A DNA stretch of 60,430 bases from Minisyncoccota bacterium. GTDB taxonomy: Bacteria > Patescibacteriota > Minisyncoccia > Phycocordibacterales > UBA9973. Under the pieces are notes generated by a model that was not told the DNA's origin, did not search any database, and was given only the letters and a program-made list of their open reading frames with translations. Positions within the stretch are counted from its first letter, which is position 1. The number at the start of each line of letters is the position of its first letter. Positions 4,589-49,307 of the stretch are shown here, one piece after another. The position numbers and the translations under genes are program-made. The stretch is from contig JBAYKP010000005.1 of assembly GCA_041664465.1 (NCBI GenBank), positions 1 through 60,430 on the forward strand, read 5' to 3'.

Positions 4589-5155
4589 CTAAAACAAATC
4601 AAGAGCAGTTTTAATTGTCTCTTCTAATGAATAACAAATAGGAACTTCTGGTATTTCAGTTTCAATTTCAAATTTAATCGTTGACCATTCTGGGAATTCT
4701 CCATCAGTTCCAATAACAAGATTTATGTTAGGATTTGCTTTACGTCTAGCTATCCATTCTCCTAATTCCATCATAGTGATATGTCCATATACTTTATTAG
4801 AGTCTTCTTTTTCTGCTTCTTTTGGGAGATAAAAGATTATACATCCATTTTTAGAGGCAAAATACAAATAATATTGTTCCCAAGCTCTTTGCCTTTCAAA
4901 GGTTTGATAATTTGAGGGGTTATCTTGTTCGATAAATTTAATTAGGTCCGGATTTATTTCTCTTCTTGGAGAAGCAATAAAGAGTTCTTTGTTTTCTTCA
5001 ATAAAAATTTTTATTGCCTTATCTTGCCATTTAGGAGCATTACGAATTGGACCAGCAAGAAATATAACAGGTAAATTTGGTTTTATTTTTACATTATTTC
5101 TAATCTTGTCTTCAAAATAAGAAATGGGTGAATGAATTTTGGTTTTATTTATCAC
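4589..5155 (-). CDS. Nucleoside 2-deoxyribosyltransferase-like protein
   Basis: VIFLAGPIRN near the N-terminus and a later MELGEW acidic motif resemble the NDT/Rcl-like Rossmannoid fold. The family call is tentative. Confidence 0.45.
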   Translation of the reverse strand: MINKTKIHSPISYFEDKIRNNVKIKPNLPVIFLAGPIRNAPKWQDKAIKIFIEENKELFIASPRREINPDLIKFIEQDNPSNYQTFERQRAWEQYYLYFASKNGCIIFYLPKEAEKEDSNKVYGHITMMELGEWIARRKANPNINLVIGTDGEFPEWSTIKFEIETEIPEVPICYSLEETIKTALDLF

Positions 5156-35692: not shown

Positions 35693-36349
35693 ATGCAAAC
35701 TGAAAAAAGTTTTAAGCACGTTACCAACAGACAGGGCGTGCAGTTGGCTCATAGAGCTAATGAAAATGGGGTTTCAAGAGAAGACTGGGTAAAGTTTACC
35801 AATGACTCAGTAAAACTTGCTAAGTTTTTTGATGAGATGAAAAACGGCGACAACTGGTTTGAAAAGCTTCAGGTTGAAGCTCAAAAAATCGGTGCTCGTG
35901 TATCCCTTCTTAAACTCAAAGTTGACTACACCAAGTCACACAATGAGTCTGCAATGGCAGGTGGGCCACAAACGGATTCAAGCTATAATGTTCTCAAAGT
36001 GGGAGATAAATATCAACCATCAGAAAACAAAGTAGTTGAGGAAGTTATTGTTTTATTAAACTATCCTCAGGGCGGGGGGAACTACCAGAAAACTGTTGAG
36101 TGGGGAATCTCAAATGGTCTCTCAAAGACCACTCCTCACGTTCCGTTTGCAATTGGCGAACAATTTTCAAAGCTTAACTATACACTTGGACCTAATCCAA
36201 TGTATGTTGTTGAAACGACAGGATGTTCGTTCGGTGGCAGTGCGCGCGCTTGCTTTGTGTACTGGTACGATGCTGAGCGCTGGTCCGACTTGTCTTGGCA
36301 GGGCATTTTTGGTAATGACGATGACTGGTTTGCTTTCCGCAAGAAATAG
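35693..36349 (+). CDS. DGR variable (target) protein with C-terminal CLec/FGE-like variable region
   Basis: The C-terminal 40 aa are encoded by the VR and end with the invariant ...DDDWFAFRKK. Confidence 0.85.
   Translation: MQTEKSFKHVTNRQGVQLAHRANENGVSREDWVKFTNDSVKLAKFFDEMKNGDNWFEKLQVEAQKIGARVSLLKLKVDYTKSHNESAMAGGPQTDSSYNVLKVGDKYQPSENKVVEEVIVLLNYPQGGGNYQKTVEWGISNGLSKTTPHVPFAIGEQFSKLNYTLGPNPMYVVETTGCSFGGSARACFVYWYDAERWSDLSWQGIFGNDDDWFAFRKK
36226..36339 (+). repeat. DGR variable repeat (VR)
   Basis: 114 nt aligned without gaps to 36704-36817, with 16 mismatches, every one opposite an A in the TR. Confidence 0.92.
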
Positions 36350-36703
36350 ATCTTTGTGTTTAGAAATTTATTTTTTTTAAATACTTTGATTTTTGCTCTC
36401 GCACGATAAAACTTTGGAGATAGTCTAAACTCCACCCTCATATATTTATTTATACGGGGGTATTTTTTATGTTAGACTAAATATGGCATTAGGTGAATAT
36501 GCGGGAGATTATGATTTCTCGCTACCGAAACCAGTATCCATATATTGAGAATATTTGAGATTAAGATTTCAAGTAGTGTGGTATATGTAGAAACTTCAAA
36601 AAATGAAGATACTTGGTATAGGGTGCTTTGTGATTATAATCACAAATAATATACAACCCTAAGATAGTTCAAGGGGTGGTGGGATAGATGGCACTCTATA
36701 TAT

Positions 36704-36817
36704 TTCGTTCAATGGCAATGCGAACGCTTGCTATGTGTACTGGAACGATGCTAAGCGCAAGTCCAACTTGAATTGGCAGAGCAATTTTGGTAATGACAAT
36801 GACTGGTTTGCTTTCCG
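36704..36817 (+). repeat. DGR template repeat (TR)
   Basis: Non-coding copy of the VR, rich in AAY codons in the VR frame (N.N.N...N....N.N..N..N.N). Confidence 0.92.
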
Positions 36818-36841
36818 AAAATCTTTTCATTTCTCTTCTGT

Positions 36842-37186
36842 CTATATGGCAGGAGAGTTTTGTTTTGTAAGTTGCCCATTCCATCCACCAAGCATTCTTC
36901 CTACTTCATCTAAGGGAACAGAAAGAATAATATATTTTTTATTATCAATAGATTTTGTTTCCCATAAAATCATTAATAAAATTTTTAGCGTATCAACTTT
37001 TCTAATTGATAATCTTACATATAACTGTTTTTCTCCCTTAGGAAGAAATCCAGCTAAAGAAATAGCTTCCATTATTTCTATGAATAAAGTATCAATTCTA
37101 ACTCCAAGTGAGTAGCGATGTTCTTTGGGAATTATTTGATAGTAGCCATACCATAAGATATACACAGTTTTGAGCCTCTGGAGCAC
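36842..37186 (-). CDS. avd: Avd-like four-helix-bundle accessory variability determinant
   Basis: IPKEHRYSLGVRIDTLF and EVGRMLGGW parallel BPP-1 Avd IPRKHGVAREMFL and EVGRILGSW. GTG start. Lies on the strand opposite TR and RT. Confidence 0.75.
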   Translation of the reverse strand: MLQRLKTVYILWYGYYQIIPKEHRYSLGVRIDTLFIEIMEAISLAGFLPKGEKQLYVRLSIRKVDTLKILLMILWETKSIDNKKYIILSVPLDEVGRMLGGWNGQLTKQNSPAI

Positions 37187-37223
37187 TGGTAAAAGTGTCG
37201 GGGGGGGGGGTAGTATTCATAGT

Positions 37224-38246
37224 ATGATTCGGACTTTGTTTATTCATACATATAAAGATATCATTTCTGTTGAAAATATTCTAGTTGCATGGCGGGAATT
37301 TTTAAAAGGCAAAAAACAAAGAAAGGATGTTTTAGTTTTTGAACAAAATTTGATGACTAACATAATAGACTTGCACAATGATTTAAAAAATAAAACATAC
37401 AAACATAGCGAATACAAAGCATTTAAAATAAATGACCCCAAACCAAGAGACATACATAAGGCAAGTGTAAGAGATAGACTTCTCCATCATGCTATTTATC
37501 GTGTTCTATATCCATATTTTGATACAAAATTCATATATGATTCATATTCTTGTCGACTAGAAAAAGGGGCTCATAGAGCCTTAGATAGATTCAAATATTT
37601 TGGAAATAAAATTTCAAAGAATAATACAAAAACTTGCTATATATTAAAATGTGATATCAGAAAGTTTTTCGCAAATATTGACCATCAGATTTTAAAAAGT
37701 ATTTTAGCGAAATATATAGAAGATGAAGATATCATATGGTTATTAAATCAAATTATTGATAGTTTTCAAACAAATATGGATACAAACTCTGCCATGGCAG
37801 AGTTTGTATCCATAAAAGAGAAAGGTTTACCCCTTGGCAATTTAACCAGTCAGCTACTTGTGAATATTTATATGAATGAATTTGATCAGTTTGTGAAGAG
37901 AGAATTGAAAGTAAAATACTATGAGAGATATGCTGATGATTTTGTAATTTTTTCAGAAGATAAAGAATATTTAGAAGATATTTTAATAAAGATGGAAGAA
38001 TTTTTAGGGAATAAACTAAAACTACAAATGCATCCAGATAAAGTATTTATTAAGACTCTTTCTTCTGGTATTGATTTCTTGGGTTGGATAAACTTTCCAA
38101 AACATAGAGTGTTAAGGACAGCCACGAAGAAAAGAATGTTTAGGAATTTAAAAGGGAATGATAATAAAAAAGAGAGTGTCAATTCCTATTTAGGGATGCT
38201 TTCGCACGGGAGTGGTTATAAATTGGAAATTAAAATTAAAAAATAA
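37224..38246 (+). CDS. DGR reverse transcriptase
   Basis: SYSCRLEKGAH, CDIRKFFANIDH, GLPLGNLTSQLLVNIYM (DGR-type LGxxxSQ) and YADDFVIF (YxDD). The ATG at 37224 is preferred over the TTG at 37170 in the track. Confidence 0.9.
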   Translation: MIRTLFIHTYKDIISVENILVAWREFLKGKKQRKDVLVFEQNLMTNIIDLHNDLKNKTYKHSEYKAFKINDPKPRDIHKASVRDRLLHHAIYRVLYPYFDTKFIYDSYSCRLEKGAHRALDRFKYFGNKISKNNTKTCYILKCDIRKFFANIDHQILKSILAKYIEDEDIIWLLNQIIDSFQTNMDTNSAMAEFVSIKEKGLPLGNLTSQLLVNIYMNEFDQFVKRELKVKYYERYADDFVIFSEDKEYLEDILIKMEEFLGNKLKLQMHPDKVFIKTLSSGIDFLGWINFPKHRVLRTATKKRMFRNLKGNDNKKESVNSYLGMLSHGSGYKLEIKIKK

Positions 38247-42023: not shown

Positions 42024-42353
42024 ATGGTAGATTTAAAAGAATTACAAAAGGAGGTAATGCAAAATAAAATAGATCACGGTTTCAACATCACTGATGTCGC
42101 TTTGGAATTTTGTCATGCCCATGAAGAACTTTCAGAAGCATTTCATAAATTTAGCAAAAGAGAAGAAGGTGTGGCTGAAGAGTTTGCCGATGTCGCGATT
42201 TTCCTATTAGGTATCTGCGAAATCCTTGGTTATGATTTAGAGAAAGAATTAATAGAAAAAATAAAGAAAAATAAAAATAGAAAGTACATCAAGTCCAAAT
42301 CTCCAGATGGCAAAGATATATTCATCAGAGTTAAAACAGAAGTAGATCCATAA
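42024..42353 (+). CDS. MazG-like all-alpha nucleoside-triphosphate pyrophosphohydrolase
   Basis: HEELSEA ... EEFADVAIFLL acidic motifs of the MazG/DCTPP1-like fold. Confidence 0.65.
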   Translation: MVDLKELQKEVMQNKIDHGFNITDVALEFCHAHEELSEAFHKFSKREEGVAEEFADVAIFLLGICEILGYDLEKELIEKIKKNKNRKYIKSKSPDGKDIFIRVKTEVDP

Positions 42354-42359
42354 ACAAAT

Positions 42360-42394
42360 AAAATCTCCGCTAGGCCTTGCCTAGCGGAGATTTT
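42360..42394. terminator. Bidirectional hairpin terminator
   Basis: aaaatctccgctagg-ccttg-cctagcggagatttt lies between the convergent MazG-like gene and folA. Confidence 0.75.
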
Positions 42395-42403
42395 ATTTTC
42401 CCT

Positions 42404-42928
42404 TTATTTTCTTTCATAGATTACAAAATTAGTATCATATATATTCTTATCGTCTTTTGTATGCTTATCTTCTTTCACAATTTGCCACTTATTCATATCT
42501 ATCATAGGGAAGAGAGTATCAGCATCAGGGAACTCTGCATTCACATGGGTGATGTAAAGTTTGTCGGCTTTGTCTATGAAGAGCTTATATATCTGTCCTC
42601 CACCTATTACAAATAATTCCTCATCTTCTTTTGTTGTATTTTTCAAAAGTTCATCTAATTCTTCCATTCCATATACAACTTCTGCATCGTCTCTTTTGAA
42701 TTCTTTATCGAGAGTAAGTATTATGTTGCGTCTGTTAGGGAGTGGCTTACCGGGTTTGCCATTGGGTCCAATACCTAATGACTCGAAAGTTCTCTGGCCC
42801 ATTATGACAGGGTGTCCGCTGGTAGTTTCTCTGAAATGCTTCATATCTATCGGTAAATCCCATAGAAGCTCATTCTTCCTTCCGATTTCATTGTTATTTG
42901 CAATGGCAGAGATTATAGATAAGATCAT
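42404..42928 (-). CDS. folA: Dihydrofolate reductase
   Basis: IGRKNELLWDLPIDMKHFRETT, VIMGQRTFES, VIGGGQIY. Confidence 0.9.
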   Translation of the reverse strand: MILSIISAIANNNEIGRKNELLWDLPIDMKHFRETTSGHPVIMGQRTFESLGIGPNGKPGKPLPNRRNIILTLDKEFKRDDAEVVYGMEELDELLKNTTKEDEELFVIGGGQIYKLFIDKADKLYITHVNAEFPDADTLFPMIDMNKWQIVKEDKHTKDDKNIYDTNFVIYERK

Positions 42929-42929
42929 A

Positions 42930-43778
42930 TTATTTCACTATATCGAGTCCTGTTATCGGCTCATTTGGTTTATAAAACGGTGCAAATGATTCATATATTT
43001 CATTTACCAATGTCTCATCTTTATTATAAGCACGGTCATAAATGTTGTCAGGAAAAATAGGGAAAATATTCGGATGATCATTTTCTCTTTTAATTAACTC
43101 CAATGCTCCTTCATAATGATTATCATATATGTGTGCATTAGAAATAGTATGGGTATAAATTCCTGGTTTCACTCCAAGCTTCTGAGCAAGGGCACACATA
43201 AGTAACGAGAATCCAAAAGTATCAAAAGGGCACCCAAGCATCATATCATTGGAACGGACTATATTATGAAGATGAAGTCTACCACCTATAATATTTACAG
43301 TAAATGCAAATGGGCAAGGAGCATTCTTCTTATAAGTGGCCTTGAGTCCTTTCCCGTAGAGTCCATCATCAGCAGGGTCCCAAGTAATGACTACTCCTTG
43401 TCGTGAGTGAGGTTCTTCTTGCAAATGTTTAACAAGTTGGTCAAGCTGATCTCTTCCAAAATGATGTCGCCATCTATAACCATAAGCAGAAGTTATCGTG
43501 CCATCTTCTTCTATAAATTCATCCCACATCTTTGTATATTTTCTTAAGAATTCTGTATCGTTATCTCCTGTGATGAACCACACCTGCTCGGCAATAGGAG
43601 ACTTGATAGGATTCTTACGAAGAGTTAAAACAGGAAATCCATCTTTTTCAATATCAATTTGAAAAGTAAGCCCTGGTAAAATTTTTATCTTATGGCCTGT
43701 TCTTTCATTTAATTCTTCAATACCTTCCTCCATTATTTTCTTTATTAAACTTTTATAGACTTTATCAAATGTTGTCAT
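42930..43778 (-). CDS. ThyA-family pyrimidine-nucleotide C5 methylene-transferase, with Asp at the Asn177-equivalent position
   Basis: Ungapped alignment to the E. coli ThyA core: APCPFAF (Cys nucleophile), VRSNDMMLGCPFD versus QRSCDVFLGLPFN, NAHIY versus DTHLY. Codon 186 is GAT (43221-43223). Confidence 0.8.
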   Translation of the reverse strand: MTTFDKVYKSLIKKIMEEGIEELNERTGHKIKILPGLTFQIDIEKDGFPVLTLRKNPIKSPIAEQVWFITGDNDTEFLRKYTKMWDEFIEEDGTITSAYGYRWRHHFGRDQLDQLVKHLQEEPHSRQGVVITWDPADDGLYGKGLKATYKKNAPCPFAFTVNIIGGRLHLHNIVRSNDMMLGCPFDTFGFSLLMCALAQKLGVKPGIYTHTISNAHIYDNHYEGALELIKRENDHPNIFPIFPDNIYDRAYNKDETLVNEIYESFAPFYKPNEPITGLDIVK

Positions 43779-43807
43779 AGTTTGTATTATATTATATTAT
43801 TAGCAAT

Positions 43808-44356
43808 ATGGAAACAAATAACAAAAATGAGACGAATAAGAAGATAGAGTATCCTTATTTACCAGAAGGGAGGACTATATTATATGTGCCAAAAGATAAT
43901 CAGTTTATGCAAGAAGCAAAAGAAGTAGCGCGTACAGAATCCACAGAAAAGCGATTTTCTACGGGTGCTGTAATCGTTCGGGTTCGAGATAGTATTGTTG
44001 TTTCTCAGGGTGCAAACAAAGCGTCTCTAACTAGTGAAAGTTTAATTAATTTACACAAGAAGTATTGCATTAGAAGAATTTTAGGAGTTCCGTCTGGCAA
44101 AAAATATTGGCTATGTCCTGGATGTGCAGCAGGGGATCATCATGCTGAATATAGGGCTTCTAAGAGATTAATTAAACAAGGTTTTGATAAGTCTGATCAG
44201 TTTGACTTGTATTTATGGGGTCATTGGTGGGCGTGTAAAGACTGTTGGGGTAAAATGCTTGAAATTCCAATTCGTAATGTTTATTTAATGGAAGGAAGTG
44301 AAGTTGTCTTTAACGAGAAAAACCCCAATAATATAATAGGACATCAATTTGATTAA
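43808..44356 (+). CDS. dCMP/cytidine deaminase-family protein
   Basis: HHAE zinc/catalytic motif and ACKDC (PCxxC equivalent). An extra CPGC pair suggests a second metal site. Confidence 0.7.
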   Translation: METNNKNETNKKIEYPYLPEGRTILYVPKDNQFMQEAKEVARTESTEKRFSTGAVIVRVRDSIVVSQGANKASLTSESLINLHKKYCIRRILGVPSGKKYWLCPGCAAGDHHAEYRASKRLIKQGFDKSDQFDLYLWGHWWACKDCWGKMLEIPIRNVYLMEGSEVVFNEKNPNNIIGHQFD

Positions 44357-44366
44357 TTTATTTATC

Positions 44367-44394
44367 AAAAAGCGAGCCTTCGGGCTCGCTTTTT
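44367..44394 (+). terminator. Intrinsic terminator
   Basis: aaaagcgagcc-ttcg-ggctcgcttttt followed by a T-run. Confidence 0.75.
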
Positions 44395-44454
44395 GTTTTT
44401 TGGCAGATTGTGCTAAAATCAGAATATTACAAATCTAATTTATTACCATAATAT

Positions 44455-45630
44455 ATGAAAGATAAACAAGTAGAAAAACTTATCAAAGAAGAAGAGAAGA
44501 GACAGAAGAGTGTTGTGAACTTAATAGCTTCAGAGAACATTGTATCAGATGATGTACTTAAAGCTCTAGGCTCTAAGCTTACCAATAAATATGCCGAAGG
44601 TTACCCAGGGAAGAGATATTATGGTGGTAATCAAGTGATAGATAAAGTAGAGAATTTGGCGATTGCTCGTGCCTTGAAACTTTTTAAACTTAAACCCGAA
44701 AATTGGCACGTGAACGTCCAGCTTCTTTCAGGTAGTCCTGCGAACTTTGCACTTTACTCTGCGCTCGTTCCACTCGGTGGCAAAATAATGGGGATGAAGC
44801 TTTCTTCAGGAGGACATCTTACTCACGGGTACCCTGGTTCTATGACGGGCAAGCTTTGGAAGTCGGTGCAATTTGAACTTGATAAGAAAACAGAAGTTAT
44901 AGATTATGAAGCTCTTAAGCAATTAGCAATAGCTGAAAAGCCAAATATTATAGTTTGTGGTTTTACTGCATATCCACGCGTTGTAGATTTCAAAAAGTTC
45001 AGAGAAATTGCAGATGCAAGTGGAGCTCTTCTTCACGTAGATATGTCGCACTTTGCAGGGCTTGTAGCGGGGGAAGCTTATCCTTCACCATTTCCTTATG
45101 CTGATTCTGTGATGACTACTACGCACAAGTCACTTCGTGGTCCAAGACATGCAATACTATTTGTAAAGAAAGATGCACGTGAGTTCGATAAGAAATTAGA
45201 CAAGATGATTATCCCAGGACTCTTCGGTGGACCTCACGAGAATACTATTGCTGCGGCTGCCGTTGCTTTCCTTGAAGCTTCTAGTCCTTCATTTAAAAAG
45301 TATGCCAAGCAAGTTGTGAAGAATGCGAGAGTCTTGGCCAAAGAATTACAAAAGCTTGGTTGGCACATCATATCAGGTGGTACAGACTCACACCTTATTC
45401 TTATGGATACATGGATGGATGGCAAGGGTATACCTGGCAAGGATGCAAGTGCTAAGCTTGAGAAAGCAGGTATAATAGTGAATATGAATACAATCCCCGG
45501 CGACCCACGTGGGCCTATGGATCCTTCAGGCATCCGCCTAGGCACTTGTGCAGAAACTTCTCGTGGAAAGAAAGAGTCAGATATGGTGAAATTAGCAGTA
45601 AGAATGGATAAGATATTGAGAGGAAAGTAA
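44455..45630 (+). CDS. glyA: Serine hydroxymethyltransferase
   Basis: NLIASEN, YAEGYPGKRYYGG, TTTHKSLRGPR (PLP lysine). Confidence 0.92.
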   Translation: MKDKQVEKLIKEEEKRQKSVVNLIASENIVSDDVLKALGSKLTNKYAEGYPGKRYYGGNQVIDKVENLAIARALKLFKLKPENWHVNVQLLSGSPANFALYSALVPLGGKIMGMKLSSGGHLTHGYPGSMTGKLWKSVQFELDKKTEVIDYEALKQLAIAEKPNIIVCGFTAYPRVVDFKKFREIADASGALLHVDMSHFAGLVAGEAYPSPFPYADSVMTTTHKSLRGPRHAILFVKKDAREFDKKLDKMIIPGLFGGPHENTIAAAAVAFLEASSPSFKKYAKQVVKNARVLAKELQKLGWHIISGGTDSHLILMDTWMDGKGIPGKDASAKLEKAGIIVNMNTIPGDPRGPMDPSGIRLGTCAETSRGKKESDMVKLAVRMDKILRGK

Positions 45631-45631
45631 A

Positions 45632-46039
45632 ATGAAAATATATTTTGGAGGAGCTATAAGAGGAGGAAGAGAAGATGTCCACATATATGAACTAATCATT
45701 AAAGAATTAGGTAATTTTGGAGAAGTTCTTACAGAGCATATAGGGGATAAGAACTTATCAATTATAGGAGAAGATAAACTTCCTCAATATATTTACGAGA
45801 GAGATACAAACTTTATTAAAGAAGCAGATATTTTTATAGCAGATGTCACTACTCCATCACTTGGGGTTGGCTATGAGATTGCTTACGCAGAAAAATTAAA
45901 TAAAAAGGTTTTCTGTCTTTATAACAATACAGGAAATAAGTTAGTATCATTTATGATTATGGGGAATCAAAATTGTAAGGTTTTCCCTTATAAAAATAAA
46001 GAAGAAATTTCTGAAATAATAAAAAGTATTTTTAAATAA
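45632..46039 (+). CDS. DNPH1/Rcl-like 2'-deoxynucleoside 5'-phosphate N-hydrolase
   Basis: MKIYFGGAIRGGRED ... LTEH ... TPSLGVGYEIAYAE closely parallels the Rcl/DNPH1 motifs (IYFCGSIRGGRED, PSLGVGYE). Confidence 0.75.
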   Translation: MKIYFGGAIRGGREDVHIYELIIKELGNFGEVLTEHIGDKNLSIIGEDKLPQYIYERDTNFIKEADIFIADVTTPSLGVGYEIAYAEKLNKKVFCLYNNTGNKLVSFMIMGNQNCKVFPYKNKEEISEIIKSIFK

Positions 46040-46041
46040 TT

Positions 46042-46473
46042 ATGATTGAAAAACAAAGAGAAAAATTAAAACCATGTGTTGGTGTGATGATTTGGAAAGA
46101 AGGAAAGGTTCTTCTTGGTAAGAGAAAAGGATCTCATGGCGCAGGGGAGTATGCATTTCCTGGAGGACATTTAGAGTTTGATGAATCATTCCAAGATTGT
46201 ACGAAAAGAGAGGTTTTAGAAGAAACTGGTGTTAAAATCAAAAATTTACGATTTATGTCATTAGCAAATTTTATATTGAACGAAAATAGACAGGACATTC
46301 TAGTTTCATTTATTGCTGATTGGGAAAGTGGTGAAGCTAAAATATTAGAACTAGAAAAAAGTGATGGTTGGGAATGGTACTCACTTGATAATCTACCCTT
46401 ACCATTATTTCGTCCAACACAAATCACAGTAGATTCATTTATAACAGGCAAAAACTTTTATGATAAAGAATAA
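46042..46473 (+). CDS. NUDIX hydrolase
   Basis: Nudix box GGHLEFDESFQDCTKREVLEETGV. Confidence 0.8.
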   Translation: MIEKQREKLKPCVGVMIWKEGKVLLGKRKGSHGAGEYAFPGGHLEFDESFQDCTKREVLEETGVKIKNLRFMSLANFILNENRQDILVSFIADWESGEAKILELEKSDGWEWYSLDNLPLPLFRPTQITVDSFITGKNFYDKE

Positions 46474-47173
46474 AAAACAAAAAACAAAAGGCAAATTGAT
46501 AGTAATAGATGGGACGGATGGAAGTGGGAAGACTACGCAGTTTAATTTACTTGTTGCACATTTAAAAAAGGATGGATATAAAGTAAAGACTGTTGATTTC
46601 CCTGTGTATTATAAGAATTTTTTTGGAAAGTTTATAGGGCACTGTCTATCAGAGCAATATTACAATTGGCTCAACGTTCATCCCAAGATTGCTTCTATGG
46701 CATATGCTGCTGATAGATGGGAGTCGAGTAAAGAAATGAAAGAATGGTTAGCTAAAGGATATATTATTATTGCAAACCGCTATGTCTCAGCCAATCAGAT
46801 TCATCAAGGTGGGAAAATTAAAGATTCCAGAAAGAGAAATAATTTTATTAAATGGCTTGATCAGATGGAGCATGAAGTTTTTGGAATACCAAGACCAGAT
46901 TTAACTTTTTATTTAAACTTACCAATAAAGATAGTTTTAGAACTTATAAAAAAGCGTGATAGTAGTAAAATGCATAGAAAGTATTTAAAGAATAAAAAAG
47001 ATCTTGCCGAAAATGATGTAGACTATCAAGAGAATTCTATAAAAAGTGCCATTTGGCTTTCTAAGAATATTAAGAATTTTGTTAAAGTAGAATGTTATAA
47101 AAATAACGAAATTTTGTCTCGTGAAAATATTCACGAGATGGTTTATAAAGAAGTTAAAAAAGTATTAGGATGA
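46460..47173 (+). CDS. tmk: Thymidylate (dNMP) kinase
   Basis: P-loop IVIDGTDGSGKTTQ and ANRYVSANQIHQG. Confidence 0.8.
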   Translation: MIKNKKQKTKGKLIVIDGTDGSGKTTQFNLLVAHLKKDGYKVKTVDFPVYYKNFFGKFIGHCLSEQYYNWLNVHPKIASMAYAADRWESSKEMKEWLAKGYIIIANRYVSANQIHQGGKIKDSRKRNNFIKWLDQMEHEVFGIPRPDLTFYLNLPIKIVLELIKKRDSSKMHRKYLKNKKDLAENDVDYQENSIKSAIWLSKNIKNFVKVECYKNNEILSRENIHEMVYKEVKKVLG

Positions 47174-47592
47174 AAATCAAAATTAAAAAATTAAAAGATG
47201 AGGCGAAGTTTCCTAGCTATGCTCATCCGGGGGATGTCGGGATGGATCTATATGCTATGGAGACTGTGACTATCAAGCCCATGGAGCATTATAGATTCTT
47301 CCATGGTTTTGCAATGGAGTTCCCCGAAGGGAATGCGGGAATTATAATGGATAAGTCTAGTATTTCAAAAGCAGGGCTTATTCATATGGGGGGAGTTTTT
47401 GATGCTGGGTATAGAGGGGAATACAATACGCACCTGGTGAATCTGTCCGATAAGTCTTATACTGTAGAAGAGGGGGATAAAGTATCTCAATTAGTAATAG
47501 TGCCAGTTGCTATTGTGGAAATTGAAGAAACTGATACATTGAGTGAATCCTCTAGAGGAATGGGGGCATTTGGTTCAACAGGAAAGAAATAA
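47170..47592 (+). CDS. dut: dUTP diphosphatase
   Basis: GDVGMDLYA, GVFDAGYRGE, C-terminal RGMGAFGSTG (motif V). Confidence 0.9.
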   Translation: MKIKIKKLKDEAKFPSYAHPGDVGMDLYAMETVTIKPMEHYRFFHGFAMEFPEGNAGIIMDKSSISKAGLIHMGGVFDAGYRGEYNTHLVNLSDKSYTVEEGDKVSQLVIVPVAIVEIEETDTLSESSRGMGAFGSTGKK

Positions 47593-49307
47593 TGAAAGGA
47601 CAAATAGAAAAAATAATAAAAGAAGTTTTAAAAAGTCTTAATATAGAAGATGTGAATTTTTCTATTGAACACCCTGAGGATTTTAAGAATGGAGATTATT
47701 CTACAAACGTAGCGATGATTTGTGCCAAGCAGCTTAAAACTAATCCAAGGGAATTGGCTGAAAAAATAGTTGTTGAATTGAGGAATTTAATTTCTCCCCC
47801 TGCGAAGGGGGAGGTAGGAGGGGGTCTGATAGAAAAAGTAGAAACTGCTGGTCCGGGATTTATAAATTTCTATTTATCAAGAGAATTTTTCACTGAAAGT
47901 GTGGGTAGTATTTTGAGTAAAGGGGAAGATTGGGGGAAGAATGATAATGGTGGTAATAAAAAAGTTATTGTAGAGTATTCATCTCCGAACATTGCCAAGC
48001 CTTTCACTGTAGGGCATTTGCGTTCTACTATTATAGGGGATTCAATTGCTAGGGTTTTAACTTTTTCTGGATTTGATGTAGTGAGGGACAATCACTTAGG
48101 TGATTGGGGTACTCAGTTTGGGAAACTTATTATTGCTATAAATAAATGGGGGAATTTAGATGAAATAGAAAAAAGTGAGACCCCAATAAAATTATTGGTG
48201 GATTTGTATGTGAAGTTTCATGATGAAGCAGAGAAAGATGGAGCTCTTGAAGATGAAGCTCGCGCTGCTTTTGCTAAGCTTGAGAAGAAAGATAAAGAGG
48301 CTATAGATATTTGGAAGAGATGTATTGAAATATCAAAAAAAGAATTTGATAGGATTTATAAAAAGTTGCAGATTACTCCTTTCGATACGATGTATGGGGA
48401 AAGTTTCTTTGAAGATAAAATGGCAGTTGTGATAGATGATGTGAAAGAAAAGAATATTGGGAAAGAAAGTGAGGGTGCATTTATTGTGGAATTTGCGGAA
48501 GAGAAAAATCTTTCACCACTTTTGCTTCTCAAAAAAGATGGGTCATCTTTATATGCACTTCGTGATTTAGCTGCAGATAAATGGAGAAAGAAAGAATATG
48601 GTGATAATATAAAAATAATCAATGAAGTAGGAGCAGAGCAGACGGAATATTTTAGGCAAATTTTTGAAACAGAGGCTATGCTTGGATATTTTAAAAAGGG
48701 GGACAGGGTACATATCGCCCACGGTCTTTATCGTTTTGCAGAGGGGAAAATGAGTACCAGGAAAGGGAACGTTATTTGGCTTGAAGATATTATAAATGAA
48801 GCAGAAAAGAGAGCGGGAGATATAAATGAAGAGACGAAAGAAGTGGTGGCTATTGGCGCACTTAAATTTAATGACTTAAAGCGTGATAGTTTAAGAGATA
48901 TACTTTTCAATTGGGAAGAAATTTTGAATATAAAAGGAGATTCTGGTACATATTTACAATATACTGCTGTTCGTGCGAATTCGATTTTAAATAAAGCAAA
49001 AGATTTTAGATTAGAAACTATAAACTCTAAACTAGAACCTATCCCAGCAGAAGTTACAGATTTGGAAAAATATCTATATCAATTCCCTGAAGTCGTAGAA
49101 TATTCTTACGAGAGTTTGCAACCTCATCACATAGCTACATATCTTACAAAGCTTGCAAGTGAATTCAATACTTTCTATGGTAATACTCAGATATTAAAAG
49201 ATGAAAACAAATATATGTCATATCATTTAGATTTAATAAAAGCCTTTACCCAAACAATGAAGAACGGCCTCTGGCTCTTGGGGATTGAAATCCCAGAGAG
49301 GATGTAG
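47592..49307 (+). CDS. argS: Arginine--tRNA ligase
   Basis: SSPNIAKPFTVGHLRS (HIGH region), MSTRKG (KMSKS-like), C-terminal anticodon-binding domain. Confidence 0.92.
   Translation: MKGQIEKIIKEVLKSLNIEDVNFSIEHPEDFKNGDYSTNVAMICAKQLKTNPRELAEKIVVELRNLISPPAKGEVGGGLIEKVETAGPGFINFYLSREFFTESVGSILSKGEDWGKNDNGGNKKVIVEYSSPNIAKPFTVGHLRSTIIGDSIARVLTFSGFDVVRDNHLGDWGTQFGKLIIAINKWGNLDEIEKSETPIKLLVDLYVKFHDEAEKDGALEDEARAAFAKLEKKDKEAIDIWKRCIEISKKEFDRIYKKLQITPFDTMYGESFFEDKMAVVIDDVKEKNIGKESEGAFIVEFAEEKNLSPLLLLKKDGSSLYALRDLAADKWRKKEYGDNIKIINEVGAEQTEYFRQIFETEAMLGYFKKGDRVHIAHGLYRFAEGKMSTRKGNVIWLEDIINEAEKRAGDINEETKEVVAIGALKFNDLKRDSLRDILFNWEEILNIKGDSGTYLQYTAVRANSILNKAKDFRLETINSKLEPIPAEVTDLEKYLYQFPEVVEYSYESLQPHHIATYLTKLASEFNTFYGNTQILKDENKYMSYHLDLIKAFTQTMKNGLWLLGIEIPERM

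Follow-up and report, generated by a model that had tools for sequence, protein, structure and literature searches.

A ThyA homologue with an Asp-type active site, predicted to methylate dCMP, in a conserved nucleotide-metabolism cluster of Patescibacteria

In textbook accounts cells make thymidylate by methylating deoxyuridine monophosphate (dUMP), with either ThyA or ThyX as the enzyme. Here we describe a ThyA homologue that carries Asp at the position discriminating dUMP from deoxycytidine monophosphate (dCMP), encoded in a stretch of 60,430 nucleotides from a Minisyncoccota bacterium (GenBank assembly GCA_041664465.1, contig JBAYKP010000005.1, positions 1 to 60,430; the window). The gene lies at 42930-43778 on the reverse strand; we use thyD as its working label and ThyD for its product, a predicted dCMP C5-methyltransferase of 282 residues belonging to PF00303, and we write Ec before positions of E. 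coli ThyA. A preliminary description of this DNA had named folA and a dCMP-deaminase-family gene as neighbours, and both are found where it placed them: folA, for dihydrofolate reductase (DHFR), at 42404-42928 on the same strand (PF00186 at 1.2e-53, full length), and, divergent from thyD, a zinc deaminase of the dCMP/cytidine deaminase fold at 43808-44356 on the forward strand (PF00383 at 3e-8). Convergent with thyD-folA is a gene for a MazG-like, all-alpha nucleoside triphosphate pyrophosphohydrolase of 109 residues (42024-42353, forward strand; PF12643 at 4.2e-6).

A profile search matched residues 7-238 of ThyD to PF00303 with an E-value of 1.5e-55 and 188.7 bits (curated cut-off 24.3), and its AF2 model, with a predicted local distance difference test score (pLDDT) of 85, reaches template modelling (TM) scores of 0.78-0.84 to E. 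coli thymidylate synthase (TS) over about 290 columns in Foldseek, which identifies the TS fold. The motifs singled out in the preliminary description are all present: A-P-C with Cys155 (codon 43314-43316) and Pro156 next to it, R175-S-N-D178, and L181-G-C-P-F-D186. Alignment to solved ThyA structures with HMMER, and to E. coli ThyA with MAFFT, places Cys155 on C146, R175, S176 and D178 on R166, S167 and D169, and Asp186 on N177, as had been stated, and Pro156 on H147, in keeping with the claim that this His is replaced by Pro. That the core aligns without gaps is correct for the catalytic core, where the offset to E. coli ThyA is a constant +9 from Cys155 to Tyr218, and must be restricted to it, since there are insertions and deletions on the N-terminal side of Cys155, including one of nine residues inserted before it. 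The catalytic set is otherwise kept (R26, E64, W85, Y99, R126, C155, R175, D178, H216 and Y218), as are the residues typical of deoxyribose substrates, Ser176 (Ec167) and Arg126. What is absent is the signature of canonical ThyA, given Asp186 at Ec177 and Pro156 at Ec147. Asn177 of canonical ThyA hydrogen-bonds O4 and N3-H of uracil; the codon for Asp186 is GAT, at 43221-43223, a single base away from Asn, and that for Asn152 lies at 43323-43325. After the conserved Tyr there are 64 residues in ThyD (Tyr218), 55 in E. coli ThyA, 61 in the enzyme of Xanthomonas phage XP12 and 28 in T4 gp42. The tail of ThyD, Y-x-P...I-x-G-L-x-I, is conserved and aligns with Y-D-P-H-P-G-I-K-A-P-V-A-I of E. coli, part of the C-terminal tail that closes over the folate in ThyA (PMC5175136).

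Homologues of ThyD are named thymidylate synthase in the databases. ThyD passes the cut-off of TIGR03284 (thymidylate synthase; 121.4 against 108.35 bits), which is probably why the clade is annotated as plain thymidylate synthase, and it falls below the cut-offs of NF002497, NF002495, NF002496, NF002499 and NF002498, the remaining NCBIfam ThyA equivalog models with bacterial enzymes in their scope (one of these scores is 153.5 bits against 327).

The residues that set ThyD apart have been interpreted in other systems. Asp at Ec177 goes with a cytosine substrate in T4 gp42, MilA, BcmA and the XP12 enzyme, and Asn with uracil (PMC5175136, PMC8670742, PMC13326640), and the exchange of Asn for Asp is by itself sufficient to turn the preference of ThyA to dCMP (Liu & Santi 1992 and Hardy & Nalivaika 1992, as cited in PMC8670742). 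When TS homologues from phage contigs with modified cytosine are set against those from unmodified contigs, Ec177 and Ec147 separate the two sets best, Asp177 indicating dCMP as the substrate and any residue other than His147 cytosine-modified DNA (PMC8670742). Hydroxymethylases are marked by Asp or Glu at Ec143 and 5-hydroxy-dCMP synthases by Asn at Ec169 (PMC13326640), and the ribonucleotide-specific MilA and BcmA by Ala at Ec167 together with Lys at Ec126 (PMC5175136). At Ec177, Ec143, Ec169 and Ec147 ThyD reads D/N/D/P (Asp186, Asn152, Asp178 and Pro156), identical to the XP12 enzyme, and it has neither the hydroxymethylase nor the hydroxylase signature; given the retained Asp178, we reject the reading as a 5-hydroxy-dCMP synthase. 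In an in vivo assay, 5-methyldeoxycytidine was made by the XP12 enzyme and by five out of seven of its metagenomic relatives (bioRxiv 10.1101/2024.12.05.627091).

Asp at Ec177 is invariant in 120 close relatives of ThyD. At least 165 GTDB species genomes carry relatives of the protein, and we kept 80 of these loci, all from Patescibacteria, for comparison of the 10 kb on either side of thyD; Asp is present in 79 of the 80, the open reading frame (ORF) of the last being unreadable by motif search. Since Asp186 is invariant across homologues in this way, a sequencing error at the GAT codon can be ruled out. The preliminary description had allowed that Asp might turn out to be common in bona fide thymidylate synthases of this lineage, which would have spoken against a dCMP enzyme. 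Asp is indeed universal in the lineage, but this answers the condition only in a trivial sense, since the condition speaks of bona fide dUMP enzymes. Close homologues (66-93% identity) that are named belong to Patescibacteria, the candidate phyla radiation (CPR), in the Paceibacteria / Nomurabacteria group, and the best genome match is Ca. Nomurabacteria GW2011_GWD2_36_14, at 91% identity. An HMMER search that was exhaustive over representatives of 50%-identity clusters gave, among its 150 best hits, 123 proteins with Asp and 22 with Asn at Ec177; within these 150 the nearest are all of the Asp type, Asn-type proteins beginning only at an E-value of about 1e-35 and weaker. Among the cluster representatives Ec147 covaries with Ec177, being other than His in 120 of 121 Asp-type and His in 20 of 21 Asn-type proteins (Fisher p = 4e-22). 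Compared with the Asn type, the Asp-type clade shows a co-varying set of replacements, N177D, H147P (99 of 121), L143N (107 of 121), W83F, R127Q/H and K48R, and retains R21, E58, W80, Y94, R126, C146, R166, S167, D169, H207 and Y209 in E. coli numbering.

Outside bacteria, XP12 and its relatives came top when 50,697 phage genomes were searched by tblastn, with 37-41% identity and E-values of 1e-52 to 1e-55. In pairwise comparison ThyD is 38% identical to the XP12 enzyme (3e-63), 30% to E. coli ThyA (1e-32) and 23% to T4 gp42 (1e-6), and the distance of the last makes the XP12 enzyme the right comparator. A neighbour-joining tree, distance-based and without bootstrap support values, puts the Asp-type proteins, ThyD and XP12 among them, in one clade and the Asn-type ThyA proteins in another, with T4 gp42 as an outlier. 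In the phylogeny and active-site alignment, which the preliminary description had proposed, ThyD groups with XP12 and shares its D/N/D/P code, at a distance from T4 gp42.

The conservation of ThyD and its chromosomal setting point to a strongly constrained housekeeping gene rather than a mobile island. In the window argS follows downstream of dut, the last gene of the cluster, and in one relative the neighbours of the module are fusA-rpsG-rpsL and the ribosomal protein operon; these flanks, and conservation in 80 species genomes, rule out a prophage or phage island. Mean identity to the window protein across the loci is 73% for ThyD, 75% for the MazG-like protein, 74% for GlyA, 51% for FolA, 49% for the deaminase and 40% for ArgS. 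ThyD is therefore much better conserved across species than the essential ArgS encoded nearby at 47592-49307 (73% against 40%).

The start of folA lies 1 nt past the stop of thyD, and from this spacing we take the two genes to share an operon and to be translationally coupled. folA is present in 71 of the 80 loci, mostly directly downstream of thyD. The MazG-like gene is present in 56, and its product also matches PHROG 3301 (pyrophosphatase) at 1.5e-12 and the pyrophosphatase of PDB entry 4qgp at 5.6e-4. Between the convergent mazG-like and folA genes there is a perfect hairpin with a 20-bp stem (42356-42398), likely to be a bidirectional terminator. The divergent intergenic region between thyD and the deaminase gene is 29 bp long (43779-43807), and overlapping sigma-70-like promoter matches, which are consensus matches only, occupy 43762-43824 on both strands.

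Separated from thyD by these 29 bp and lying on the opposite strand, the deaminase gene has its own intrinsic-terminator-like hairpin, with a 13-bp stem and a T run (44366-44395, forward strand). Its catalytic residues are intact (His112-Ala-Glu114, Cys143 and Cys146, the H-x-E and C-x-x-C motifs), and a second metal site of the His/Cys3 kind, formed by His83, Cys87, Cys103 and Cys106, is invariant in the family. This family comprises 406 homologues, of which those bearing an organism name are from Patescibacteria, so that on sequence grounds the protein is assigned to a lineage-specific subfamily. The AF2 model (pLDDT 82) gave weak matches to dCMP and dCMP/dCTP deaminases in a fold search, with TM scores of 0.4-0.57, and the protein had no PHROG match. 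Adjacency to thyD is kept in 73 of the 80 loci. For comparison, on contigs with modified cytosine 70% of the deaminase genes have a TS gene within 3 kb, whereas on unmodified contigs 6% do; the phage deaminase mSCD-B5 is selective for 5-methylcytosine (5mC) and acts on 5-methyl-dCTP; and for XP12-type phages it has been proposed that the TS-deaminase pair turns 5-methyl-dC nucleotides into a supply of thymidine nucleotides (bioRxiv 10.1101/2024.12.05.627091). By analogy, the deaminase of the window is predicted to convert a 5-methyl-dC nucleotide into a dT nucleotide.

Taken together, these features suggest that ThyD is probably a dCMP C5-methyltransferase of the XP12 type, with the chemistry of EC 2.1.1.54, that makes 5-methyl-dCMP from dCMP and is not a dUMP-dependent TS. 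We infer this substrate and product from family membership, residue pattern, phylogenetic placement, and the gene linkage and its conservation. The suggestion of the preliminary description that the enzyme may act on dCMP gains from the Asp186 and Pro156 signature, from nearest relatives that are all of the Asp type, and from the presence of XP12 in the clade; its preference for methylation over hydroxymethylation is likewise favoured by the coupling to folA, by the ThyA-like tail and by Asn at Ec143 as in XP12. Its further idea, that the deaminase could yield thymidine monophosphate (dTMP) from 5-methyl-dCMP, draws plausibility by analogy from the adjacency of the two genes and from the pairing proposed for XP12-type phages. 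That the whole route operates in Paceibacteria / Nomurabacteria, with dCMP methylated by ThyD and the product deaminated to thymidylate, is a reading we hold with rather less assurance, though we lean towards it; the substrate of the deaminase and the fate of the 5-methyl-dC nucleotides are what we infer here.

Beyond the deaminase the cluster continues on the forward strand with five further genes. The first is glyA, for serine hydroxymethyltransferase (44455-45630; PF00464 at 2.1e-151; 31 of the 80 loci). It is followed by a homologue of DNPH1/Rcl, the 2'-deoxynucleoside 5'-phosphate N-hydrolase (45632-46039; PF05014 at 6.8e-12; 19 loci), which matches solved DNPH1/Rcl structures with E-values of 1.7e-28 to 1e-25 and the CMP N-glycosidase MilB at only 0.14. 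A possible role would be the disposal of dUMP, or of 5-hydroxymethyl-dUMP formed when the methylase and deaminase give side products. The gene is a bacterial homologue of animal DNPH1/Rcl, a 5-hydroxymethyl-dUMP N-hydrolase, within a thymidylate cluster. Next comes a NUDIX hydrolase of the NUDX1/NUDT15/MutT type (46042-46473; PF00293 at 4e-19; 15 loci), nearest in the PDB to plant NUDX1 (6.7e-27) and human NUDT15 (1.1e-21), both of which sanitise the pool of deoxynucleoside triphosphates (dNTPs); 5-methyl-dCTP is one possible candidate for its substrate. The tmk gene (46460-47173; PF02223 at 2.1e-20; 20 loci) encodes a divergent dTMP kinase that scores 80.4 bits with TIGR00041, slightly under the cut-off of 83.25, and also matches the deoxynucleoside-kinase family, and dut (47170-47592; PF00692 at 4.1e-26; 20 loci) encodes a trimeric dUTPase. 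A second TS was sought with the ThyX motif (RHRxxS) and with phmmer using E. coli ThyA, and nothing was found in the window or within 10 kb on either side in the 80 loci. A regular-expression search for motifs of C5 DNA-methyltransferases gave none in the window or the loci, a result with no bearing either way on DNA modification.

The proposed route can be put together from these parts, with the catalytic steps drawn from ThyA-family chemistry. Cys155 would add to C6 of dCMP while Asp186 pairs with N3 and the 4-amino group of the cytosine, and C5 of dCMP would then attack 5,10-methylene-tetrahydrofolate (5,10-methylene-THF). After removal of the C5 proton by Tyr99 and Glu64, a hydride from THF would give 5-methyl-dCMP and dihydrofolate (DHF). 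The co-translated FolA would reduce the DHF, and GlyA would reload the one-carbon unit and so regenerate 5,10-methylene-THF. The deaminase may then convert 5-methyl-dCMP to dTMP, which Tmk would carry onward, or, after phosphorylation, 5-methyl-dCTP to thymidine triphosphate (dTTP). The MazG-like pyrophosphatase may supply dCMP from dCTP, destroy 5-methyl-dCTP, or do both, and dUTPase, the NUDIX hydrolase and the DNPH1 homologue would clean the pool.

Several observations count against this picture. At Ec143 ThyD has Asn in place of the large hydrophobic side chain considered favourable to methyl products, and Asn there is tied to methylation by XP12 alone. The deaminase has no similarity to the XP12 deaminase detectable by BLASTP and no sequence match in the PDB at E <= 1, and the sole phage deaminase characterised in depth takes the triphosphate and not the monophosphate (bioRxiv 10.1101/2024.12.05.627091). 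The ordinary dUMP route uses exactly the genes found here, dut (whose product makes dUMP), tmk, glyA and a dCMP-deaminase-family gene, and with folA added this textbook neighbourhood speaks for ThyD being an ordinary dUMP-dependent TS, in which Asp186 and Pro156 are lineage-specific and compensated elsewhere in the active site and dUMP comes from dUTPase and, by deamination of dCMP, from the deaminase. A protein that passes TIGR03284 and is called thymidylate synthase in the databases, whose gene is chromosomal and as highly conserved as expected of a housekeeping TS and has no second TS in sight in the window or around the 80 loci, would also fit such a role. We nevertheless regard an ordinary TS as unlikely. 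None of the Asp-type enzymes in PMC5175136, PMC8670742 and PMC13326640 is reported to act on a uracil nucleotide, and the Asn-to-Asp change alone switches the preference of ThyA to dCMP, according to the work cited in PMC8670742. The co-varying H147P, L143N, W83F and R127Q are also found in ThyD, which lies below the other five equivalog cut-offs and nearer to XP12 than to any Asn-type enzyme.

The same dCMP methylation might instead serve an XP12-like purpose, with 5-methyl-dCTP incorporated so that chromosomal cytosine is largely or fully 5mC from before replication, the deaminase diverting part of it to dTTP and the MazG-like enzyme removing dCTP. We know of no cellular organism that replaces a base before replication, though no search was aimed at one, and such replacement is so far known only from viruses; we count this against the idea, as we do the adjacent tmk, which fits dTMP as an intermediate, and the pool sanitisers (NUDIX, MazG-like and DNPH1-like), which fit the exclusion of modified nucleotides from DNA at least equally well. 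For it there are the four-function module, which is that of the XP12-type phages in whose DNA all cytosine is 5mC (bioRxiv 10.1101/2024.12.05.627091), and the need of the characterised phage deaminase for a triphosphate, which would put 5-methyl-dCTP in the pool; the divergent tmk, with its match to the deoxynucleoside-kinase family, and phage-like IMG/VR contigs that carry the same thyD and deaminase families point the same way, and on balance such replacement appears decidedly improbable. Least probable of all, and very unlikely, is that ThyD makes another C5-modified cytosine nucleotide, be it 5-hydroxymethyl-dCMP (as T4 gp42), 5-hydroxy-dCMP (as RB69 gp48) or 5-hydroxymethyl-CMP (as MilA and BcmA), towards hypermodified DNA or a nucleoside secondary metabolite, with the DNPH1-like protein acting as a MilB-like N-glycosidase. 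Asp186 and the RSND string are common to ThyD and T4 gp42, Ec143 is polar (Asn) and not Leu, and a hydrolase of the nucleoside-deoxyribosyltransferase fold lies in the cluster as MilB does with MilA; yet the match to gp42 is only 23% identity (E 1e-6), Ec143 is not Asp or Glu and Ec169 is Asp, not Asn (PMC13326640), Ser176 and Arg126 are of the deoxy type and not the Ala and Lys of MilA and BcmA (PMC5175136), the full C-terminal tail is retained, and the neighbour matches DNPH1 at 1e-28 and MilB at only 0.14. No glycosyltransferase or kinase genes lie nearby, and tight coupling to folA would make no sense for hydroxymethylases, since they release THF (PMC5175136).

Published work already covers the class of enzyme, the Asp177/His147 signature and the phage route of TS plus deaminase. 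For a conserved chromosomal version in a cellular lineage, or in the CPR, we found no description in the literature searched, and papers on Patescibacteria treat thyA as an ordinary thymidylate synthase (PMC12455944, PMC11974145). If methylation of dCMP by ThyD followed by deamination is the correct reading, a large and widespread bacterial lineage uses a chemistry and a module of which phages with 5mC in place of C are the only known carriers, and there is a third cellular route to thymidine. We entertain, tentatively and at somewhat short of an even chance, the stronger proposition that these bacteria are without any dUMP-dependent TS and make all their thymidylate (dTMP) from dCMP by way of 5-methyl-dCMP. 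On the reading of methylation followed by deamination, the annotation "thymidylate synthase" in hundreds of Patescibacteria genomes, and the metabolic reconstructions derived from it, would have to be corrected; it would become an open question whether the phage 5mC module came from the host or passed to it; and the presence of a pre-replicatively modified cytosine in any cell would become directly testable. In practical terms, the lineage-specific deaminase family is a new candidate from which 5mC-selective enzymes for methylome sequencing might be drawn. A ThyX or an Asn-type ThyA elsewhere in these genomes would not make the finding ordinary, as some other purpose would have to be found for a conserved dCMP methylase.

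Two features lie elsewhere in the window. One is a diversity-generating retroelement at 35693-38246, in which a 117-nt variable repeat (36226-36342) forms the 3' end of an ORF at 35693-36349, a template repeat (36704-36820) is 85% identical to it with mismatches nearly all at template A positions, and a reverse transcriptase gene follows at 37170-38246 (PF00078, 3.3e-24). The other is an ORF at 4589-5155 on the reverse strand, far from the thymidylate cluster, with a weak nucleoside 2-deoxyribosyltransferase-like match (PF15891, 1.9e-5, below the cut-off).

Comparison with known systems places ThyD among its relatives. With canonical ThyA (E. coli, L. casei; EC 2.1.1.45) it shares the fold, the C-terminal tail, an operon with folA, the catalytic Cys, the core of the Arg quartet and the equivalents of Glu58, Tyr94, Asp169, His207 and Tyr209; it differs in N177D, H147P, L143N, W83F, R127Q and K48R, at about 30% identity. 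The dCMP hydroxymethylase T4 gp42 (EC 2.1.2.8) resembles it in Asp at the base-discriminating position, in RSND and in the catalytic Cys, Glu and Tyr, and the details given for gp42 in the preliminary description are correct, with RSND at 168-171 and Asp179, Cys148 being there too. However, gp42 is 23% identical, has an open folate site without the C-terminal tail (28 against 64 residues), carries Asp at Ec143 and needs no DHFR (PMC5175136, PMC13326640). The 5-hydroxy-dCMP synthases RB69 gp48 and DLP3 gp80 share the ThyA fold and Asp at Ec177, and differ in having D169N and L143E (PMC13326640) where ThyD has Asp178 and Asn152. MilA and BcmA have an Asp that aligns with Asp186 of ThyD (in MilA it bears the same number) and a hydrolase of the nucleoside-deoxyribosyltransferase fold nearby, whereas ThyD lacks their ribo-specific Ala and Lys, having Ser176 and Arg126, and their extra C-terminal helical domain (PMC5175136), and its neighbour is a DNPH1 orthologue and not MilB-like. 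Given the deoxy-type residues and this neighbour, we reject a nucleoside-antibiotic pair of the MilA/MilB kind.

The phage deaminases of the mSCD-B5 type offer a similar picture, in that a zinc enzyme from the dCMP-deaminase family is encoded right next to an Asp-type TS, and the weak best TM matches of the window deaminase include the PBCV-1 dCMP/dCTP deaminase (PDB ID: 7FH4), the closest structure reported for mSCD-B5 (bioRxiv 10.1101/2024.12.05.627091). In contrast to the phage 5mC deaminases, that of the window carries the extra His/Cys3 site, and it has no sequence similarity to the one from XP12. Five IMG/VR contigs (L086-L090) are low in GC and phage-like, with numerous short ORFs pointing the same way, one ORF of the size of a terminase gene and a large one of the size of a tail gene. 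All carry thyD (45-63% identical, of the Asp/Pro type) and dut, without folA; the same deaminase family is found on L087, L089 and L090 and the MazG-like gene on L086 and L088. Possibly these are Patescibacteria phages that share the host module.

The closest parallel is with XP12 itself. ThyD and the XP12 enzyme have the ThyA fold, belong to the same Asp-type clade and share the motifs YGYRWR-HFGRDQL and WDPA-DG...KN-PCP. They differ in that the gene for ThyD belongs to a housekeeping cluster of a bacterial chromosome and is conserved in at least 165 Patescibacteria genomes, and in that the order and orientation of the phage genes are unlike those of the window. The deaminase of the window is of an unrelated-looking, lineage-specific subfamily, its pyrophosphatase is a MazG-like protein of 109 residues against one of about 255 residues of the phosphoribosyl-ATP pyrophosphohydrolase (PRA-PH) type in the phage, and the window adds glyA, tmk, dut, NUDIX and DNPH1-like genes. 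In XP12 and Pseudomonas phage ZQG1 four genes stand in a row, for a pyrophosphatase of the PRA-PH/MazG superfamily, an Asp-type TS, a dCMP-deaminase-family protein and DHFR. All four functions are present within 42024-44356 of the window, the partners of thyD being kept in 56 to 73 of the 80 loci, and with the same four functions linked in this way the window holds a cellular counterpart of the phage module.

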